Positions 3,719 through 28,000 of a DNA stretch of 28,000 nt are shown here, one piece after another. A program made the position numbers and the translations under genes. Numbering within the stretch: the first letter of the stretch is position 1; every line of letters begins with the position of its first letter. The notes beneath the pieces were generated by a model. It was not told where the DNA came from. It saw nothing but the letters and a program-made list of their open reading frames with translations, and ran no database searches. This DNA comes from Candidatus Proendomicrobium guianensium. Lineage in GTDB: Bacteria; Elusimicrobiota; Endomicrobiia; Endomicrobiales; Endomicrobiaceae. The stretch covers positions 1 through 28,000 of the forward strand of contig WQVR01000001.1 in NCBI GenBank assembly GCA_009785775.1. Reading direction: 5' to 3'.

Positions 3719-4759
3719 TTATTCAAAAAGTTTTGTAAGGATAATATTTTTTACGTTGGGCACTATGTTACGCTTTGGTAGCGCGAAGGCGGTTTTAATA
3801 AAAAAATCGGCGGTTAAATCTTTAAGGCGGCAAAGTTTTGTGTATCTGTTTGCGTTTGAGGTTGAAACCGAAGTGATGTCTGTTGTGTCGGGAAAAACTA
3901 TAAAAGATTGTATAAACGGCCTGTAAATTTCGTCTTTACTTTTAAAGCCCGAGTCTGCAAGAATTTTTTCTATGCGTTTTGAAGTTTGCTTAAACTGGTT
4001 TTCGCTTTGCTCAAACAGGTTTTTGCGTTTGGCGTTTACACGCTCCACCCCGTCTGAAACTACCTTTAAAGGCTCATTTGCGCTTCCGTAAAGTTTAGAG
4101 TTCGGAAAATACTTTGTTTCAAACAAAAATACGCAAAAAGGCAGGGGGGGTGCAGTAAAAGCTAAAATGTCTATTTCTTGCCCGTTAATAATTTTGTTAA
4201 GCTTGGGTTCATTGGGCGCGCCCATAAAAATTTTTGAAAAACCGGCAATTTTTTTACAGACTTCGTCTTCAAAAAGCCTGCCCGCACCCTTTTCTTCAGA
4301 ATCTACCATGTCGGTCAAAACCGCGTTTTGAAGTTCTAAATCTCTTACTTTTTTTGAAATGTCTTGCGAGCCCGCAAGCGTTTTTTTAATTTTTATTATA
4401 AGTTCTGTTGCGGTAACGGGTTTTGAAATAAAATCTGTAATATATTCTCCGGCTACAGAAGTTACCGCTTCGCCATAAGTTTTTTCCATAGAGCTAAGCA
4501 AAATTACAGGCAAGCTCGGCGCAAATTTTTTAATGTCAGGCAAAATGTCTATGCCTGTTTCACCTATGCCGAAATGAATGTCTAAAATAAGAAGGTCAAG
4601 CGCGTTGGGGTTGTTATAGAGGAACTTTTTTAGTTCTACCGTAGTGGCAAATTGTTTTATGGTTGTGCCCGCCACATTTTTTAAAATGGTTTTTTCAAGG
4701 GAGTTTCGTATTAAAGCGTCATCATCGGTAATGGCAATAATTTTTTGAATTTCAGACAT
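3719..4759 (-). CDS. Orphan response regulator: REC domain + coiled coil + NERD/PD-(D/E)XK nuclease-like domain
   Basis: REC: ITDDD, LILD60IH, LLSS, SKPVT. C-terminal half: GRLFEDEV, QEID197IL, LFE214TK216, NLFEQ, FIQSFIVFP. SD-like AAGGGG 7 nt before the ATG. Confidence 0.8.
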   Translation of the reverse strand: MSEIQKIIAITDDDALIRNSLEKTILKNVAGTTIKQFATTVELKKFLYNNPNALDLLILDIHFGIGETGIDILPDIKKFAPSLPVILLSSMEKTYGEAVTSVAGEYITDFISKPVTATELIIKIKKTLAGSQDISKKVRDLELQNAVLTDMVDSEEKGAGRLFEDEVCKKIAGFSKIFMGAPNEPKLNKIINGQEIDILAFTAPPLPFCVFLFETKYFPNSKLYGSANEPLKVVSDGVERVNAKRKNLFEQSENQFKQTSKRIEKILADSGFKSKDEIYRPFIQSFIVFPDTTDITSVSTSNANRYTKLCRLKDLTADFFIKTAFALPKRNIVPNVKNIILTKLFE

Positions 4760-19690: not shown

Positions 19691-20272
19691 TTAAATAAAG
19701 CGTCCAAGTAAAGTTAAGGCAAGCGCATTTATAATTTGTAGCCAAAAGTTGTCGTTAAGCGGCCAATGTATGGCTTCCACAATTGTTGCTATTAAGGCGG
19801 CAATAAGCGCAAATTGCCAGTTAAACAAAAGTAGTCCCAAAATAAAACAAACAACAAAACACGCCAAACTTCCTTCAAGAGTTTTTTGCCCGAGAAGTTT
19901 GCGTTTGCCGATACTTCTGCCTACAATGGCGGCGGCTGAATCGCCAAAAGCTAAAAACAAAAAACTTGCAAATACTATATGTCTGTCCGGAAAAAGAAAC
20001 ATTGTTAAAAAGGCGCCGGATAGCGTCCATGTAAGCCCTGAAACTTTGCGTCTTTCTTCATGGCGGTGAAAAGCGCCGAAATATTTTAAAAACCGCGCAT
20101 TAAGTTTTACATTGTTTAGGCGTACACTTTCTTGGATAATTGTGTATAAAACCACTGCCCCTATAATCCACATTGTAAGCGGCGCGGATATAAATTTGTA
20201 GCTTAGCGCATATAAAAGTATAAGCATATGAAATGCTTTGCGCGCTAATTCATCCTTTGGAATGATGCCCAT
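19691..20272 (-). CDS. CTP-dependent polyprenol/diacylglycerol kinase family (SEC59/DGK1/VTE5-like) membrane protein
   Basis: RKAFH, GDSAAAIVGR..G, KTLEGS, NDNF; multiple TM helices. Confidence 0.8.
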   Translation of the reverse strand: MGIIPKDELARKAFHMLILLYALSYKFISAPLTMWIIGAVVLYTIIQESVRLNNVKLNARFLKYFGAFHRHEERRKVSGLTWTLSGAFLTMFLFPDRHIVFASFLFLAFGDSAAAIVGRSIGKRKLLGQKTLEGSLACFVVCFILGLLLFNWQFALIAALIATIVEAIHWPLNDNFWLQIINALALTLLGRFI

Positions 20273-20934
20273 ATAACTTTAACCCCTTCTAAAATATATT
20301 GAAATATTGAAACAGCCCGTAAAAATGTGCCGTAAAAAAGCATTAAAATATTTACAGATCCCGGAAAAATCGCCGCAAGCACAAAAGTTAGCGTTATTGC
20401 ATTAACCAGAACTATTATTAAAAGCGAAAAAAACACGCCGTAAATTTTCAAATCTTTTTGTCCGGCTTTTATGGCGTAATAAGTTAGCGCGAAATGAAAT
20501 GCCGTGGTAATGCCTACAAGAAAAATAAAGTACGGATAAAACGGCGTGAGATTTATAAAAAAACCTAAAAGTAAATAACAGACTATAATTATTATGCTGT
20601 AAAACGGTATAAAATAGGGAGAGAGAGTTATCCAAATATTGTTTCTATCTAAGGTTACGCTACCGCCGTTTTTTGTAACTTTAAATTTTTTAAGCGTTGC
20701 GCCGGAAAGTATGCCGGCTAGCGCGTGGGTAAGCTCATGCCCGAAAACATAAGTGCGCATGGGGCGGGCGAAAAAAATTTGAAATAAAACGTATGTAGCA
20801 ATACCCGCCCAGAAAGGTATTGTGTACATTTTTGTATTTGCGCCAAAAACAAGTACAATTTCAAGGCTGGTATAAACAGCGGCAAGCGCCACGGGTATAA
20901 GCAATAAAAATATTATAAATTTAAAAATTTTCAC
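20245..20934 (-). CDS. M50-like membrane zinc metallopeptidase
   Basis: VFGHELTHA (HExxH) flanked by TM segments; LSPYF; GTG start; 28-nt overlap with the downstream kinase gene. Confidence 0.72.
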   Translation of the reverse strand: MKIFKFIIFLLLIPVALAAVYTSLEIVLVFGANTKMYTIPFWAGIATYVLFQIFFARPMRTYVFGHELTHALAGILSGATLKKFKVTKNGGSVTLDRNNIWITLSPYFIPFYSIIIIVCYLLLGFFINLTPFYPYFIFLVGITTAFHFALTYYAIKAGQKDLKIYGVFFSLLIIVLVNAITLTFVLAAIFPGSVNILMLFYGTFLRAVSIFQYILEGVKVIWASFQRMN

Positions 20935-21022: not shown

Positions 21023-21041
21023 GCAGCCGCTAGGCGGCTGC
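21023..21041 (-). other. Perfect 8-bp GC hairpin overlapping the giant gene's stop codon
   Basis: Minus strand GCAGCCGC-CTA-GCGGCTGC. There is no U-tract, so it is not called a terminator. Confidence 0.6.
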
Positions 21042-24000
21042 AAGAATTGCGCGGGTTCCGGCAATTTGATGGCTGTGTGCGTTATTTCTTTGCCTGCGCG
21101 ATGTAATATCAAGAACGGGCGCAAGCCTGAAAGAATCGCTAATTACAACCGCTATTGCCTGTTTAATTTGTTCTTGAGTGGCATTGCCTGAAAGCCCTTG
21201 CATTATAAGCTGTCCAAAAGTAAAATCATCATCTGAAGCTACAAAGAAAGATGAAGCATTTTGCAAAAATTCAATGCCGTTAAAAGTTTCATCTTTAACT
21301 ATAAGCGTTGTAAGCGTATTTTTCCGCCCTGTGTCTTGCTCTATTATTAGCCTTTCGCTTTGTATAAGGTTTTGTTCAGCCCTTGTGCGTTCTATCATGT
21401 TTAAAACCAAAATTCTTGCCGTTAAGGTTTCAATGTATGCTTCGTAGGTGTCAGCGTCAAGCTGTGAACGCATTATTTGCGCTTGGTGTAAATTTGCTGC
21501 TATAGGTCGCGCCATATCTTTTGTTAATGCTTCGCCAGTAATACGCACCGCTTCGCTAAATTCCAACTTATGCGCCATATTTGTAGCGTCTTGTTTGGTT
21601 ATTTCGTTTAAGAAGAATGTTTTGCCAAACCAGCCTTGTAGCGCGCTTAAAATATTGTTTCCCGCCAAAATACTACGCATGCTATTTATTTCGTCTTGTA
21701 TGAAATTTATATCTATTATGTTATAACCTTGGAAGTTATCGCTTAGTTTTGCGTCAAAACTCAAACCCCCTAAATCTTCGATTTTGTGAAATGTGCGTGC
21801 CGGTAACGTTATCCCTGTGGACAAGCTTGTTAAAACACCGTTTGAAAAAATCCCGCTAATACCTGTATTAGCATAACTAGCCTTTTGTTCGGTGGCAGTG
21901 TTTTCGTTGCCAAGATTTAAAAATATTTCTACGCCAAATAAACGCAAATTTCTTATATTTGCGCCGTAGTTTTCAAGTTTTTCAAGTTGTTTTTCATTTA
22001 ACATAACTTTCATAGGTTGGAGTGCATTTTGGGTTGCAAGCAGCCTTAAAACTTCACCGGCAGACCTTTGAAAGGATCTAAAGTTAGAAATATCTAAAAT
22101 GTTTTTGTTTGCTTGTGTTTCGCGCCACTCTCTTTGTAAGTTAGAAAGACCGGTTATGTAATCGGCAAGGCTTCCTGTAGTGCGGTGTTGCTCTATTAAC
22201 TCGTGGCCAACTTTTATCATGTCTCCCTCAAAGCTTATTGCGGTTGCGTTTTCGCTATCAATAACTACAAAAGCCGATATATCGCTAAACATTCTGCTGT
22301 TTTGTAAAGTTTGGGCTATTTCGGTGTGAGAAACACCATTTGCCGAAAACACCCGTTTACCGTAACTTATTTCTAGCGGCCACTCTCTTAGTGCCGCACG
22401 GTTAGCGCTTATATTAATGCTGGTAGAGTTTCCCCGTATAACATCGTTAACTATAAAAACAACACCGTCTACCAAGCCGTATTGCTTAATTTTTTCTTGT
22501 AGATTAGCTTCTGTAGCATATACAAAAAACACTGTCTGGGTTGCGTTGCTATTTATATTCCTGCCAAACCCCATTTTGAACTTTATAATCTGCCGGAAAA
22601 TATAGGCTACAATTTTTCTGCTGTTTAGAGTAGATATAAATCCGTCTATAAAATTTGTTTGAACTGCTTCAACTGAATGTTCTTCGCTTGTCATATTCAA
22701 CGGCAAATGAATTTCGCCAAAGTTATTGTTGATGGGGATAATATAAAGCGTTTCAAATTCTCCATATTCAAAAGAAGTAAAATTTACGGCAACATTATTT
22801 AAAATGCCGTTTTCATTGGCTTGGGCTATAATTGCCCGCAGGCGCATAATCTGCTTAGGTGTAAAGTCAGTAGTTTTGAGTCTTGCTATTGTAATATGGA
22901 AAAAATCTAGTTGAGTTTTAAAATCCTCGCTAACTTCTATAAGCGCAAGGCGCGCATTACTTATCCAATCTAATATTTCCGCATTAGAAATTTTGTATAT
23001 TATTACCCCGCTAGGCGTAAAAATAAACTCGCCTGTAAGTTTTACATTGTTAAGTTGCCCTGCCGCTATTGAGGCGGCTTCAGTTGCCTGCCTAAGCAAA
23101 GCAAGATTTTCTGGAGTTATTATATCGTATGGTGAGGTTCCAGGTTTAAAACTTAAGGTAGAGTGAAGAGCATTATTAGTTGAAATGTGTAAAAGCCCTT
23201 CAAGTTCAGGTGCGTTTAACTGCTCGACAAAGGGTGTTATGGCTTCTGTAAATGCGCGGTTGAGTGAATATCTGGTTATTATGGTAGGCGCAGTATAAAG
23301 CGTCGTTCCTTCTTCGGGCATAGATTTTTTTATCTGAGTTCTAACCGCATCGAGATTTAATGTGCGCATTGTTTCTTCATAAATGCGCAACTCTTCAATG
23401 TAGCGTTCGATTATTAGTTTTAAATATTCGGGGATAGTGTTTTTAAAATTTTCATACAGCCTTAAAATATCTGCGTGATTGGTCAAGCGAAACAAATATG
23501 TTTTTATTGCTTGAGGGTTTTGGGAATTTTCAATCAAACCTATAATTACAGGTAAAACATCTGCGGTTACGGGAGAGGGTATTTTCAGGTCAGCGTTATC
23601 TCCCCAGTTGTGTTTGGAATAAATAAGCATTCTTAACAGTTCGCCTGCGATAGATTGTATTTGTTCGTCGGTTTCGCTTAAATTTTCATTTCTTCTTTCG
23701 TGCACATACGGTATGGTTATGCTTATGCCTTCAATTTTGCCTTGCTCCAACTCGGCTGCAAAAGTTTGCATAAAAGTACCGTGTGTGCGTAATTGTTGAA
23801 CAGGTATTTGCATATAGGCAAGCCTTATGGGGCGTGCGGGGCGGGCATTTTCAATAATATACTCAAGTATAATATCTCTGGTTAGGGTAAAATTTTCGCC
23901 CGTGTGGCGCGCTTGTGTTTCCAAAATTAAATCACCTGCAGCTATTTCTATCCCCATATTATACGCATGATGCCTTAAAACTATTTCTATAATTTTTGCT

Positions 24001-27000
24001 TCGCTAAGACCATTTGCACTAAAAAAATCCCTTTGTTGATTTTCTGTAAGGTTGCCTATTTTGTTTTCAAAGTCTGCGATGTTTGAAATTGTTATATTGT
24101 TTGATATTTTTACGGGTATTGCCGCTTTAGCGGTTCTTTCAAGAAGCGACATTGTTCCCCAGCCGAAACCGCCTGAAATGATTATTCTTTTTGTAGCGCC
24201 TTCATTGTATAACTGCAAAGCTTTCTTAAAGATATCCGCATTATCGTGACCGCAAATTAAAAGGAAATCTGCTGGGCTGTCCGTGGTTAACTGTTCAGAG
24301 CGGCTTAAAAGTGCAATAAGCTTGTTTATGTTGGTGGCAATTTGTTGCTCTTTTGTTTTAAAGTTGTCTTTAAAAATTTGGTTTATAAGATTAACTAATT
24401 CTTCTTTACGTATGTTGTCAGTAAAGTTTAACGGGTCGGGCATATGTCTATGTTGCAATTGTGGCAATTCGGGTGAAAGCTCGCTAAACAAAAGCACGTT
24501 AGGGTGTACGCCTAAAGCATTTAAACGCTGTAATAATGTTTGCCGGTGCTCTTCATCGACTGTTATTATAAAGTTAGGAATTGTTGCTATTAAAGTGTCG
24601 CCAAGATATTCAGATTTAAAACGGTTTAATATGTCTATATCAACTTGTCCGCGTAATATATTTTTATATTCAAGAGATAATGAGTTGTTTTGAATACTTG
24701 AATAATAGTCTATGCCAGCTGAAAAAACCTCTATATTCTTTTTGCCGTTGTCGCGCAAAAATTGTCTAAACAAAACGTTTGCCACAGCGCTGCGATTCAT
24801 ATTTTCAGAGCAAACAAAAACAATAGAGGTTTCTCTGTCATTGATTACGGCGGCTCTTAAATTTGCGATGTTTCTTGCTGTAATGGCGTTAATGTTTTGC
24901 GTTAAACGCGCTTCGGATGAGCCGAAAGCGTTCCAAATAAAATGGCTCCATATCAGGGCAATATTTAGCGCGATGTTTTGTAAAATTTTAAACCTGCTAA
25001 ACCTTTCATATGTTCTTTTGGCAGAACTTAAAATTTGGTTAAGGCCTTTTTCGTATTGTTTTCTGGTGGTTTCGTTATAGCCTGAATGGTTTTCAAGAAA
25101 TTCCTGCTCTTGGCTGGTTTTTCCCTGCAAACCCGCAAGAAAAACATTTTTAAGTTCGCGCCTTTCAGCGAAAGGCGCTATGGCAACCTGAATTATCCTT
25201 AAACCGTTTTCACCAAGAAACCTAAGTATAAGCTTGCTGTACCATTTGTCTAGGGTTGTTTCTGTTGTTAAATGCTGTCCTATTGACCGAAAATCACCTG
25301 TTATGCCAGCGGCTTGCCATGGGGCTTCCTGCGGCACTGCTATTGCCTCAATCTGTTGTAGTTGGGTAAGTTTTTTTGGAAGAATTGTAGAGGTTGCTCT
25401 AAATACTTCGTTGGAGTAAAAGTTTTGTATTTCTTCTGTCTTAACGAACCAAAATGATGTATAAGTATTTCTAAAACCGTCATTGCCTGTAGCAATACCT
25501 ATTAGAGGATACCATACACCCGCCTGTTTGCCGTATGTACCTTGTGACGATTTGTAAAACAAATGTCTCTGCCCATTAGGGTATGCGACTTCTACTATGT
25601 TTCTTCCGGAAAAGAAAAATCTATTTACAATTTTAAATTCTGTAACTCCGTTTAAGTTAAGGTTTAATATGTTGTCAAAAAATGCATAGAAGCGCGCAAT
25701 GCTTTCCTCACTTCTTAAAAACGCGTATGCTTGTCCTTCTGCGCTAGTTAAAAACTCTAAAAACCTTTCCTGTTCAGACTCAGGGTTGTTTTCCATTTCA
25801 ACGCGCTCAAATACATATTCGCCTGTTTGTAAATTAATAAAAGTTTTTCTGCTTACAATTTTATTATGTTCGGACAAATTTATTGAATATTTAGAATGAA
25901 GATGGCTGTTGGTAATTAAGTAATAAATCCCGTTTTCTTCCTTTATTTCAAATGTGTCTGTTGCAAGATTTACAAACCCGTTTGAAATGTTTGCTATTTG
26001 AAAATTTCCGTTTTGTTTAGAAATAGCGATAAGAGGAAAATATCGGTCGCCATGTCCATGATAAAAAATAGTATCTCCATTGCTTAAATCTGGCAGAGCA
26101 AAAACCAAGTTTGTTCTTTGGGTTCCGTCAAATTCTTGCCAGTGTATACTTTCGTTAAGTCCTTCAAGCGCTTGGTGGAAAGTAGGGTTTTCATTTAATT
26201 TTATAGTTTTCCCAACAACAAACATGTTTTTGCCGTCTGCATGTATTCTCGCAAATTGCGAGCCATAAGCATTTCTTGCTTGTAAATTGCCCACTCCGGC
26301 GCCATATAGTCTTGCTGCTGTAATTTGTGACAGCATGTTAAGGCTTGCTTGCCTGCCGATATCTTCATTTATTACCGAAATGCTGTTTGCGCCGTCGTAA
26401 AATATCCATATTTTTTTGGACGGATCTGCATTATTGCCGTGAATATAAGCGTTTTTTATAGTTTCTTTTAAAGCCTCCTGCTTCCATTGGAGATCATATT
26501 CACTAATATGCAATTTTTCTACAAGTACGCCAGCTAATGTATAAATTATACCTGCCACGTCTTGGCGGAATATTTCAGGAAGGATGGGGGCGTCTGTTTC
26601 AAAACTGTCAAATATTATAGATATTAATGCAGATTGCCCTCTTTGCATTTTTTCAGTTATAGTTTGTCTGACATGTTCGTCTCCCGGTGTTATCTGATCA
26701 TGAAAGGCTTTTTGCATGAGTAAGTCAGTAAAGTTAAAATCAATAATTTGTTGCGGATTAAGTTTTTGGGTTAAAATGTATTGTGCGGTTGCTACGTCAG
26801 TTGTAAGTGCAATGCCTTTTCTGTTTACCAATGAGTGGGTAAACATCATAGCGACATTTGCAAAAGCAGAGGCAAAAGTGTTGGTTGTAAATCTACTATC
26901 ATAACTGTATAATATTCTATCTAGCTTGGCATTAAATTCTGCTATTGTCTCAGTATTTCCTACTGCAACCGCGGTTCTATAACGCAAGTGCCTCATTAAA

Positions 27001-28000
27001 AACGCATTTCTCTTATTTTTATATTCTTCTATAGCGTGTGTCTCAAGCCTAAAGTTTTTAACATAAATTCTAAGTTCTGCTAATTCCCTTAGTTCAGATT
27101 GTTCAAAAATAGGGGCTAATATGCGCGTTAAAATAAAGTGCCTTAAACCTTTGGTTGTTCCGCCAAATCTGTAAGCTCTTGCCCAAGAAGACGTGAAAAT
27201 TTTGCCTAAAATTGTGTGTTCTTGCACACTTGTGACAGTTGTATCTGTAGTTAATACGGTAGAGGGTACAGGATTAAATATTTGGCGGGCATGATAAAAG
27301 GCAGAGCCTTCATCAAATTGTATTTCTTCACTTTTGTACTCCGTAGTAAAATAGGAAGCTCCGTGGTTATTGTTTACTTCAATGATTCCTCCGCCATGTC
27401 CGTGTACGCCAGTAATTTTTGCAAGTGCTTTTGCGTTATTATTTGCAACTGCGCCTATTTTGTTTAAAACATTTACAGTAGCGTTTGTTTTGTCTATGTA
27501 GATAAATAGCGGTTTATTTAATTGACCGTAATATCCATGGGCTATGGCATTTTTTAACATTTCCCAAAGTCCAACATTAAGAGCAATCCGCATACGGTCT
27601 TTTTCATAAAATAACTTGTCAAATATAAGCTCTGAATTCGGGTTAACATTTTTGGTTAAATAATCTGTGAGCCCTTGCACAAATGAAAAAAATTCTTGTG
27701 CTATTACGCGGTATTGCCATTTAAAGTCTTCAGACATTTCACTTACGGATATATCAGGTATTATGAAATTTCTGTTTACAGTTAAAGAAAGAATTTCTCC
27801 GCGGTTAACGGCTTGTACTATTTCATAAAATATATTCTCATCAAAATTGCCGCTTGGTAATATGTCTGTTAAATCAAATTCTGTTATTCCCGAAGCATTG
27901 AAAAAATTAACAAGGTTATTTATATTTGTGGCATGTAAATCGACGGGCATGGCGGCAAGGTGCCTTTGCAAAAGCCATTGTTGGCTGCGCTCTGTCCAAC
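21030..28000 (-). CDS. Giant multidomain protein, C-terminal >2320 aa (5'-truncated): 2x HATPase-like, LMW-PTP, YdcF/DUF218, 2H phosphoesterase, repeated helical modules
   Basis: The frame stays open to base 28000 (WTERSQQWLLQRH...), so TTG 27971 is not the true start. Motifs: EMLKNAIAHG, ETIKNAYIHGN, VCSENMNRS...PDP, ISGG...SEA...HTGEN...VQQLR, HST/HIT. Confidence 0.9.
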   Translation of the reverse strand, partial: WTERSQQWLLQRHLAAMPVDLHATNINNLVNFFNASGITEFDLTDILPSGNFDENIFYEIVQAVNRGEILSLTVNRNFIIPDISVSEMSEDFKWQYRVIAQEFFSFVQGLTDYLTKNVNPNSELIFDKLFYEKDRMRIALNVGLWEMLKNAIAHGYYGQLNKPLFIYIDKTNATVNVLNKIGAVANNNAKALAKITGVHGHGGGIIEVNNNHGASYFTTEYKSEEIQFDEGSAFYHARQIFNPVPSTVLTTDTTVTSVQEHTILGKIFTSSWARAYRFGGTTKGLRHFILTRILAPIFEQSELRELAELRIYVKNFRLETHAIEEYKNKRNAFLMRHLRYRTAVAVGNTETIAEFNAKLDRILYSYDSRFTTNTFASAFANVAMMFTHSLVNRKGIALTTDVATAQYILTQKLNPQQIIDFNFTDLLMQKAFHDQITPGDEHVRQTITEKMQRGQSALISIIFDSFETDAPILPEIFRQDVAGIIYTLAGVLVEKLHISEYDLQWKQEALKETIKNAYIHGNNADPSKKIWIFYDGANSISVINEDIGRQASLNMLSQITAARLYGAGVGNLQARNAYGSQFARIHADGKNMFVVGKTIKLNENPTFHQALEGLNESIHWQEFDGTQRTNLVFALPDLSNGDTIFYHGHGDRYFPLIAISKQNGNFQIANISNGFVNLATDTFEIKEENGIYYLITNSHLHSKYSINLSEHNKIVSRKTFINLQTGEYVFERVEMENNPESEQERFLEFLTSAEGQAYAFLRSEESIARFYAFFDNILNLNLNGVTEFKIVNRFFFSGRNIVEVAYPNGQRHLFYKSSQGTYGKQAGVWYPLIGIATGNDGFRNTYTSFWFVKTEEIQNFYSNEVFRATSTILPKKLTQLQQIEAIAVPQEAPWQAAGITGDFRSIGQHLTTETTLDKWYSKLILRFLGENGLRIIQVAIAPFAERRELKNVFLAGLQGKTSQEQEFLENHSGYNETTRKQYEKGLNQILSSAKRTYERFSRFKILQNIALNIALIWSHFIWNAFGSSEARLTQNINAITARNIANLRAAVINDRETSIVFVCSENMNRSAVANVLFRQFLRDNGKKNIEVFSAGIDYYSSIQNNSLSLEYKNILRGQVDIDILNRFKSEYLGDTLIATIPNFIITVDEEHRQTLLQRLNALGVHPNVLLFSELSPELPQLQHRHMPDPLNFTDNIRKEELVNLINQIFKDNFKTKEQQIATNINKLIALLSRSEQLTTDSPADFLLICGHDNADIFKKALQLYNEGATKRIIISGGFGWGTMSLLERTAKAAIPVKISNNITISNIADFENKIGNLTENQQRDFFSANGLSEAKIIEIVLRHHAYNMGIEIAAGDLILETQARHTGENFTLTRDIILEYIIENARPARPIRLAYMQIPVQQLRTHGTFMQTFAAELEQGKIEGISITIPYVHERRNENLSETDEQIQSIAGELLRMLIYSKHNWGDNADLKIPSPVTADVLPVIIGLIENSQNPQAIKTYLFRLTNHADILRLYENFKNTIPEYLKLIIERYIEELRIYEETMRTLNLDAVRTQIKKSMPEEGTTLYTAPTIITRYSLNRAFTEAITPFVEQLNAPELEGLLHISTNNALHSTLSFKPGTSPYDIITPENLALLRQATEAASIAAGQLNNVKLTGEFIFTPSGVIIYKISNAEILDWISNARLALIEVSEDFKTQLDFFHITIARLKTTDFTPKQIMRLRAIIAQANENGILNNVAVNFTSFEYGEFETLYIIPINNNFGEIHLPLNMTSEEHSVEAVQTNFIDGFISTLNSRKIVAYIFRQIIKFKMGFGRNINSNATQTVFFVYATEANLQEKIKQYGLVDGVVFIVNDVIRGNSTSINISANRAALREWPLEISYGKRVFSANGVSHTEIAQTLQNSRMFSDISAFVVIDSENATAISFEGDMIKVGHELIEQHRTTGSLADYITGLSNLQREWRETQANKNILDISNFRSFQRSAGEVLRLLATQNALQPMKVMLNEKQLEKLENYGANIRNLRLFGVEIFLNLGNENTATEQKASYANTGISGIFSNGVLTSLSTGITLPARTFHKIEDLGGLSFDAKLSDNFQGYNIIDINFIQDEINSMRSILAGNNILSALQGWFGKTFFLNEITKQDATNMAHKLEFSEAVRITGEALTKDMARPIAANLHQAQIMRSQLDADTYEAYIETLTARILVLNMIERTRAEQNLIQSERLIIEQDTGRKNTLTTLIVKDETFNGIEFLQNASSFFVASDDDFTFGQLIMQGLSGNATQEQIKQAIAVVISDSFRLAPVLDITSRRQRNNAHSHQIAGTRAILAAA

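Follow-up and report, generated by a model that had tools for sequence, protein, structure and literature searches.

The window analysed here is a stretch of 28,000 nucleotides that makes up all of contig C1 (WQVR01000001.1) in the metagenome-assembled genome (MAG) of Candidatus Proendomicrobium guianensium, which totals 1.02 Mb in 178 contigs and is 78% complete. One end of the contig is filled by a giant open reading frame (ORF) on the minus strand, which an earlier interpretation made from the DNA letters without database searches (the sequence-only reading) had described as an array of enzymes within one polypeptide. The frame closes with a stop codon at 21030-21032 and stays open up to 27998 at ~38% G+C. 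Residues of the encoded protein, hereafter Q, are given in P0001 numbering; the sequence-only reading counted from a TTG at 27971, so that its values are 9 lower than ours. The features of the ORF are listed below, where L numbers denote other loci used in comparisons.

21030..27998, minus strand: giant ORF of 2322 codons plus stop, 3′ end complete, 5′ end lost at the contig end
27264..27716, minus strand: GHKL module 1 (RsbW/SpoIIAB-type, HATPase_c_2-like), aa ~95-245, with N-box E146..N150 and a Gly-rich lid GHGGG at 200
26811..27215, minus strand: helical module 1, aa 262-396, with motifs AP..E, F...H and H...N (alignment A4)
25899..26789, minus strand: GHKL module 2 plus C-terminal extension, aa 404-700, which moves as a single cassette (matches in L026, L028 and L029; alignment A6)
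25359..25811, minus strand: module without assignment (the "possible toxin-like domain" of the sequence-only reading), aa ~730-880, an independent cassette in L031
24909..25286, minus strand: helical module 2, aa 905-1030, with invariant A-P..E, F...H and H...N
24384..24833, minus strand: low-molecular-weight (LMW) phosphatase module, aa 1056-1205, with P-loop C1063-SENMN-R-S and D1188 in an MPDP motif that starts at 1186
23481..24329, minus strand: DUF218/YdcF-like module, aa 1224-1506, whose position after the LMW phosphatase recurs in relatives
22704..23363, minus strand: 2H phosphoesterase module, aa 1546-1765, with H1612-S-T and H1701-I-T and weak homologues in L037, L038 and L039
21033..22577, minus strand: conserved C-terminal domain, aa 1808-2322 (~515 aa), an alpha/beta part followed by a helical bundle
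21033..21056, minus strand: family-wide C-terminal tail, here T-R-A-I-L-A-A-A-COOH

The giant ORF is a genuine gene, 5′-truncated and 3′-complete, and on the existence of one open frame the sequence-only reading was right. At ~5x depth the ORF is tiled without conflict by contigs of two metagenome runs from termite guts, although these contigs are probably the source data of the MAG and not independent of it. The listed Logan contigs give poor coverage of a stretch of 250 bp at 23967-24219, but homologues align unbroken across it (Q 1224-1506 against L027). An assembly chimera, which the sequence-only reading had itself named as a possible flaw, is unlikely because relatives align continuously over several module junctions. 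At the truncated end, no overlap with other contigs of the genome was found at k = 21-127.

Profile and embedding searches agreed with the sequence-only reading on the phosphatase (LMW-PTP), DUF218/YdcF and 2H phosphoesterase modules and on the presence of two HATPase-like domains. The LMW-PTP identity is confirmed at the sequence level: Pfam LMWPc (PF01451) covers residues 1059-1193 with 27.2 bits against a cut-off of 23.2, and the C-x5-R-S P-loop and the D-P general acid are both intact. The DUF218/YdcF identity is supported at the level of the family. Here Q itself falls under the DUF218 (PF02698) cut-off, with 22.2 bits against 27.6 (E 1.5e-4), and the homologous modules of relatives match the family in six cases out of six, two of them above the cut-off (35.3 and 32.3 bits). 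Support for the 2H phosphoesterase comes from its two H-x-T motifs and from an ESM Atlas score of 0.95 with 191 shared features, every top named cluster being a 2H family; a Pfam match was not found. GHKL module 2 is likewise supported by the Atlas (score 0.96, HATPase_c_2 clusters), with which weak SpoIIAB matches agree. GHKL module 1 stays under the Pfam cut-off for HATPase_c_2 (E 2.6e-3) and is homologous to module 2 by hhalign (96.3%, E 1.5e-9). N-boxes and G2-like GHGGG and GAGVG motifs are present in the pair, the G1 motif (DxGxG) is atypical, and Pfam scores lie under the cut-off. Inspection of the sequence motifs found the catalytic motifs of Q's modules intact.

The two helical modules proposed earlier fared unequally. 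Module 2 is a conserved unit that is present twice in the relative L031, each copy ~50% identical, and module 1 resembles it weakly, with only a marginal match by hidden Markov model (HMM; independent E-value 0.16) and 30% identity in the alignment. Both keep AP..E, F...H and H...N in order; their likeness to Rce1 is a motif-level lead only. An origin of these modules from Rce1-like/CPBP proteases (PF02517) was considered and rejected, with hhalign at 5%, no HMM match and modules that are not hydrophobic. The region at about 611-900, for which a beta-rich part and a possible toxin-like domain had been suggested, gave no family, structure or feature match in Pfam, the PDB or the Atlas, and these two calls are left without support. 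Searches of PDB sequences with the whole protein, the N-terminal head of relatives described below, the C-terminal domain, the helical modules and aa 611-905 returned nothing significant, and PADLOC defence models and NCBIfam yielded nothing useful.

In relatives, separate pieces of Q find matches in many different giant ORFs, each 2,000-12,000 aa long; we fetched 18 of these ORFs and mapped them against Q. All complete fetched ORFs open with a basic and hydrophobic, signal-peptide-like start, followed by a head of ~550 aa with the motif I-Q-D-L-H; among 64 database members, the signal-like N-terminus is present in 60 and the IQDLH head in 58. Across 21 sequences, with identities as low as 20%, the head residues D83, H85, E115, R436 and H486 do not vary. 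When an AlphaFold model of the head (predicted local distance difference test, pLDDT, 75) was searched against the PDB with Foldseek, EreC ranked first and second (6xcq, E 0.024, probability 0.69; 6xcs) and Bcr135 (3b55) fourth, with low template-modelling (TM) scores. The order of the head's acid-x-His, Glu, Arg and His is that of the 2His/2Glu + Arg catalytic set of TIKI enzymes such as RRSP and Bcr135 (PMC6254334). No Pfam match was obtained for 15 heads and no match among PDB sequences, and Erythro_esteras (PF05139) had no match in 61 genomes. On the strength of the modelled fold and the residue order, the head probably belongs to the TIKI/TraB/erythromycin-esterase superfamily.

This head lies outside the window, in relatives and on other contigs of the same genome. 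A head is found on seven of seven complete proteins that carry the C-terminal domain, and so the lost 5′ part of Q most likely encodes a signal and a head. Elsewhere in Q's genome there are five head matches, each cut by a contig end, so the assembly systematically breaks within genes of this family; three of them are orphan head fragments (C25, C59 and C128). The further fragments of the family in this genome, at least five in number (L040-L044), lie on C25 (6411-8543, plus strand), C59 (1-3162, minus), C128 (1-2109, minus), C34 (whole contig) and C64 (2-2647, plus). The C34 fragment is 2654 aa long, open at both ends, and carries a PPDK-type ATP-binding module. Within Q's own genome tblastn found no whole-protein paralogues, and the link to the family surfaced there only via the head domain. 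A word-based homologue search with the whole protein returned only Q itself and one partial LMW-PTP match.

At the other end, the C-terminal domain of Q shares 41-44% identity with the ends of four relatives in genome searching and BLAST mapping and with five sequences in alignment A1; an HMM finds it in nine fetched proteins, always at the very C-terminus. It is rare: a set of 1.84 billion representatives has 30 clusters of it, almost always at the C-terminal end of a long protein. By these matches, the ~515-aa domain marks Q's subfamily. Its AF2 model has a pLDDT of 83 and a predicted TM-score (pTM) of 0.84.

The last residues of the chain recur throughout the family. The pattern [I/M/L][L/M/T]-x-[A/S]-A-COOH ends 17 of 17 complete fetched C-termini, and in a collection of 5.8 billion proteins the tail is found in 56 of 64 head-bearing proteins, mostly as Y-R-A-M-L-A-A-A. 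Of the eight that depart from it, four are flagged as partial records, and the other four include an Omnitrophota-labelled protein and one labelled Elusimicrobia. Such conservation implies that the tail has a reader. An S41 tail-specific protease and a secretin exist in family genomes; both are common genes and prove nothing here. Mimicry of an ssrA tag was considered and set aside, as the tag that ARAGORN predicts for Q's genome, AASFYL, is unlike the tail and the prediction itself looks unreliable. The tmRNA gene in question lies on contig C95 of this genome (4146-4538, ARAGORN); its tag is atypical and the resume codon may be mis-called.

Between head and tail the proteins diverge in content. 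The nine proteins with the common C-terminal domain differ in their middle modules, as the sequence-only reading would predict of cargo exchanged around a constant scaffold. Residues 404-873 of Q are found together in L026, the order LMW-PTP then DUF218 is shared by L027, L028 and L030, and the helical module and module 730-880 both recur in L031. No orthologue sharing the fixed architecture of Q was found among the relatives searched. These alignments show that paralogues swap enzyme modules as cassettes within a fixed head/tail frame.

The cargo of the family reaches well beyond that of Q. Pfam identifies GNAT and HD modules in L022, adenosine deaminase in L024, NDK and GNAT in L031, Metallophos and LMW-PTP in L027 and two LMW-PTP modules in L028, while L036 combines PPDK-type modules, LMW-PTP and a bona fide Rce1-like intramembrane protease module (25.6 bits vs 22.4). 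Precomputed annotations of the 64 database members add HD-GYP, HATPase_c and M48, together with accessions that we take to be those of the phosphoglucomutase, PGI, PGK and adenylate-kinase families. The theme of signalling interference in the sequence-only reading is therefore too narrow for a family whose cargo includes PPDK-type, phosphoglucomutase-type, NDK, adenosine deaminase, GNAT and HD modules. Rce1-like/CPBP modules were located at L036:3880-4287 (plus strand), L036:9529-9942 (plus) and L039:7132-7554 (minus), with E-E-x-x-F-R, F...H and H...N in hydrophobic helices; one of them passes the Pfam cut-off. These embedded modules of L036 and L039 are candidate built-in processing proteases. 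As for the origin of the cargo, the NDK copy within a giant reaches 103 bits, compared with 166-174 bits for the stand-alone NDK genes that all four relatives have, and the genome G018 has two stand-alone LMW-PTP genes in addition to one inside a giant. The enzymes of the modules are extra, diverged copies alongside the housekeeping ones.

A search with the head across 401 sampled genomes of the phylum (E <= 1e-10) found it in 98 genomes, in 64 of the 103 from Q's order and in several more distant families too. Within the genus with 0.6-1.4-Mb genomes, 13 of 44 genomes have it. The complete 1.84-Mb genome G018 holds 12 members with 44,828 aa in total, 7.3% of the genome. Its contig C1 (G018:C1) has tandem arrays: four members lie on the minus strand at ~1,692,000-1,757,800 (9030, 1976, 4993 and 3075 aa), and a tandem pair lies on the plus strand at 701,058 to about 723,500. 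G010, a complete 1.6-Mb genome of the sister genus g11, gave no head match, although three of the four genomes sampled from that genus did; whether the family is present may go with lifestyle. Database labels of members read rumen Elusimicrobia and Ruminimicrobiellum, with one weak Omnitrophota match (P0088, E 8.6e-18). Judged by homology, this is a large family in Endomicrobia, whose more distant members extend to other Elusimicrobiota and to at least one record from Omnitrophota.

Overall, we lean slightly towards a reading in which a fixed frame carries swappable enzyme modules and the modules of Q act outside the producer by way of Sec-type export. A Sec-type signal at the missing N-terminus would direct export, and a Q-type protein would cross the inner membrane as a whole chain. 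Such complete passage is expected because neither the 2322 residues of Q nor its close relatives L022 and L024 have an internal hydrophobic helix. The phosphatase, 2H phosphoesterase, DUF218 and GHKL modules would then find their substrates, whether phosphoproteins, nucleotides or phospho-metabolites, beyond the cytoplasm of the producer. The likely target compartment would be the cytoplasm or surface of another cell, either a gut protist or a neighbouring microbe. If some part of the chain is a hydrolase that processes it or recognises the tail, the TIKI/erythromycin-esterase-like head would be the best candidate.

Several observations weigh against this picture. At least one strong internal hydrophobic segment (19-mers) is present in 58 of the 64 family members; because of these segments, much of the family is probably membrane-embedded, and some modules may face the producer's cytoplasm. 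Export itself is inferred from sequence features of relatives, the N-terminus of Q lying beyond the contig. The assignment of the head is statistically weak, with Foldseek E-values of at least 0.02 and the low TM-scores and Pfam result already given. The C-terminal domain has no fold match, the best hits in the PDB and BFVD standing at E 0.03 and 0.23 with query-normalised TM-scores of 0.12-0.13. No recurrent junction or cleavage motif was found in the family, and internal matches to the tail are sporadic; of the sequences GARLA, GFGA and RSExR, the first two are absent and RSExR occurs once. Nor is any secretion or translocation machinery linked to the giant genes, which sit next to housekeeping genes or to small membrane proteins without assignment. 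The proposal of the sequence-only reading that the protein is delivered to a host, prey or competitor is accordingly not supported by these data: neither a delivery apparatus nor a translocation domain could be identified, and the internal hydrophobic helices of most members point to membrane embedding.

Two other accounts of the same proteins have to be set beside export towards another cell. The modules could form an envelope-bound array, periplasmic or at the surface, with which an organism of small genome harvests phosphate, nucleosides and sugar phosphates from gut fluid or, in endosymbiotic relatives, from the host cytoplasm. The cargo of the family, mostly phosphoester, nucleotide and sugar-phosphate chemistry (LMW-PTP, Metallophos, 2H, HD, adenosine deaminase, NDK and phosphoglucomutase-type modules), would suit such scavenging, as would the small genomes of 1-2 Mb and the signal-like N-terminus. 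GHKL, PPDK-type, NDK and GNAT modules, however, need ATP or acetyl-CoA, which are not expected in the periplasm or gut fluid, and fusions of 2,000-12,000 aa with a conserved head and tail would have no obvious reason. We consider scavenging unlikely, and favour another cell as the site of action because GHKL needs ATP and the GNAT modules of relatives need acetyl-CoA, both of which are intracellular.

Alternatively, the chain could be a polytopic inner-membrane scaffold or polyprotein of the producer, threaded through its own membrane by helices, with the ATP-dependent modules in the cytoplasm and, cut or uncut, in the service of the cell's own regulation or metabolism. The internal hydrophobic 19-mers fit this account, as do the hairpins just before the C-terminal domain in L025-L028 and the Rce1-like intramembrane protease module of L036, and the authors of a preprint on giant genes of Omnitrophota make the case that those are associated with the cytoplasmic membrane (West-Roberts et al., bioRxiv 10.1101/2023.11.21.568195). 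Yet Q, L022 and L024 have no such helix, stand-alone housekeeping copies of the same enzymes are present, and the module content varies between paralogues and species, unlike that of a core cellular machine; this account, too, seems to us improbable. A far smaller chance attaches to an artefact, whether an assembly chimera or a decaying pseudogene without function. A fragmented MAG at about 5x and the poorly covered stretch at 23967-24219 might be taken to suggest one, but 2322 stop-free codons at 38% G+C, intact catalytic motifs, homologues that continue over the weak stretch and conservation of the family in 98 of 401 genomes make this very hard to uphold.

Returning to export of a fixed frame with exchangeable modules, we put forward a broader and decidedly tentative idea. 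Head, tail and cassettes might together constitute a self-contained export-and-processing system, in which the head or a tail-reading partner would check that the chain is complete and then cut or release the modules, delivering a customisable set of enzymes (phosphatases, kinases, nucleotide-acting and metabolic ones) to another cell; the principle would be shared by Elusimicrobiota and Omnitrophota. We regard this as doubtful at present. If true, it would represent an unrecognised principle of effector delivery, occupying up to about 7% of some genomes.

The gene neighbourhoods shed no light on delivery. A protein of ~170-196 aa with an N-terminal hydrophobic segment and a C-terminal membrane helix, after which comes a basic cluster, lies directly upstream of six giant genes on the same strand, at the following positions.

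L022:8600-9127, minus strand: small upstream protein
L024:12699-13286, minus strand: small upstream protein
L025:2089-2598, plus strand: small upstream protein
L031:18650-19165, minus strand: small upstream protein
L027:9960-10490, minus strand: small upstream protein
L028:4747-5265, plus strand: small upstream protein

This protein matches nothing in Pfam, and a tblastn search of Q's genome did not turn it up. A downstream dnaG-rpoD pair was considered as a conserved functional neighbour and dismissed as plain synteny. Directly downstream of the giant ORF, a 229-aa gene (window positions 20245-20934, minus strand) shows a weak, sub-threshold likeness to M50 site-2 proteases (E 0.002); other loci do not keep it beside their giant genes. 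Farther away in the window (3719-4759, minus strand), a response-regulator receiver domain is fused to a C-terminal part of ~220 aa without assignment, and the window contains no kinase gene.

We found no published description of the family in the literature searched, in keeping with the sequence-only reading, which had called the multi-domain protein undescribed. A survey paper counts Elusimicrobia among the phyla rich in huge proteins without analysing them, and in a term search the main comparative-genomics paper on Endomicrobia showed no mention of giant or large proteins, secretion or signal peptides. New here are the Endomicrobia branch, its C-terminal domain and its near-universal tail. 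Uncultured bacteria of gut and groundwater with small genomes devote a surprising share of their DNA to giant genes, and the family offers testable handles in the invariant, catalytic-looking residues of the head, the eight-residue tail, the confidently modelled C-terminal domain and swapped cassettes that can be assayed. Should the proteins be exported and act as arrays on other cells, Endomicrobia would have in them their main toolkit for interaction with termite-gut protists or neighbouring microbes, and secreted phosphatases, 2H phosphoesterases and kinases would have a new source. Were they instead membrane polyproteins of the producer, they would represent an unusual way of organising bacterial enzymes.

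Several known systems bear comparison with the family. One is the set of Omnitrophota giant genes described in the preprint cited above, with signal peptides, N-terminal C39 or S8 peptidases, membrane helices, possible cutting and cell-wall-degrading or adhesion domains. Q's family shares with them the signal peptide, an N-terminal peptidase-type domain, many unrelated domains, frequent membrane helices and proposed cutting. In contrast, the preprint makes no mention of a TIKI-type head, Q's family has a C-terminal domain and tail of its own, and its members are smaller (about 2,000-12,000 aa).

The head recalls the TIKI/TraB/PrgY/ChaN/erythromycin-esterase superfamily in its modelled fold, whose best though statistically weak hits are EreC and Bcr135, and in the order D-x-H, E (+30), R, H; it differs in a helical insertion of ~280 aa, an Asp in place of the first Glu and the lack of a sequence-profile match. 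TIKI-type domains typically act outside the cytoplasm, and the superfamily includes the MARTX effector RRSP. Stand-alone LMW-PTP, YdcF/DUF218, 2H and RsbW/SpoIIAB proteins belong to the same families as the modules of Q, with motifs kept, whereas here diverged copies are fused in a chain of exported type.

Long chains of unrelated enzyme domains are also known from the polyvalent proteins of phages and conjugative elements, which Iyer, Aravind and colleagues reportedly described in 2017 and which are said to pass into another cell, with embedded peptidases cutting them in some cases. Those proteins are encoded on mobile elements and travel with DNA, whereas the giant genes here sit among housekeeping genes and have signal peptides; the polyvalent-protein domain LPD16 gave a non-significant match only. 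Polymorphic toxins (Rhs/CDI), in which a constant N-terminal region precedes a variable toxin tip and an immunity gene follows downstream, differ in that the C-terminus is constant here, the downstream genes are unrelated between loci and there is no Rhs or Hint match.

The precedent invoked by the sequence-only reading was that of the MARTX toxins (Vibrio RtxA family). Its likeness lies in a giant exported polypeptide, in unrelated enzyme domains swapped within a constant frame and in a protease domain within the chain, and the part of the comparison that concerns cargo swapping stands. The type I features do not carry over. In agreement with the sequence-only reading, which had seen no such motifs, Pfam detects no RTX, Rhs, Hint or CPD in this protein. 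The glycine-rich RTX repeats that MARTX toxins carry at both ends (RTX or HemolysinCabind models) and the inositol-hexakisphosphate-activated CPD (Peptidase_C80) were not found by Pfam in P0001 or in the giants of nine relatives. The family has an N-terminal Sec-type signal-like segment in place of type I secretion, a TIKI/Ere-like head, a short peptide tail and other cargo families, and it is chromosomal and multi-copy per genome, in a gut commensal host. MARTX is the nearest functional analogy and no more, its defining features being absent except for the swapping of cargo within a constant frame.

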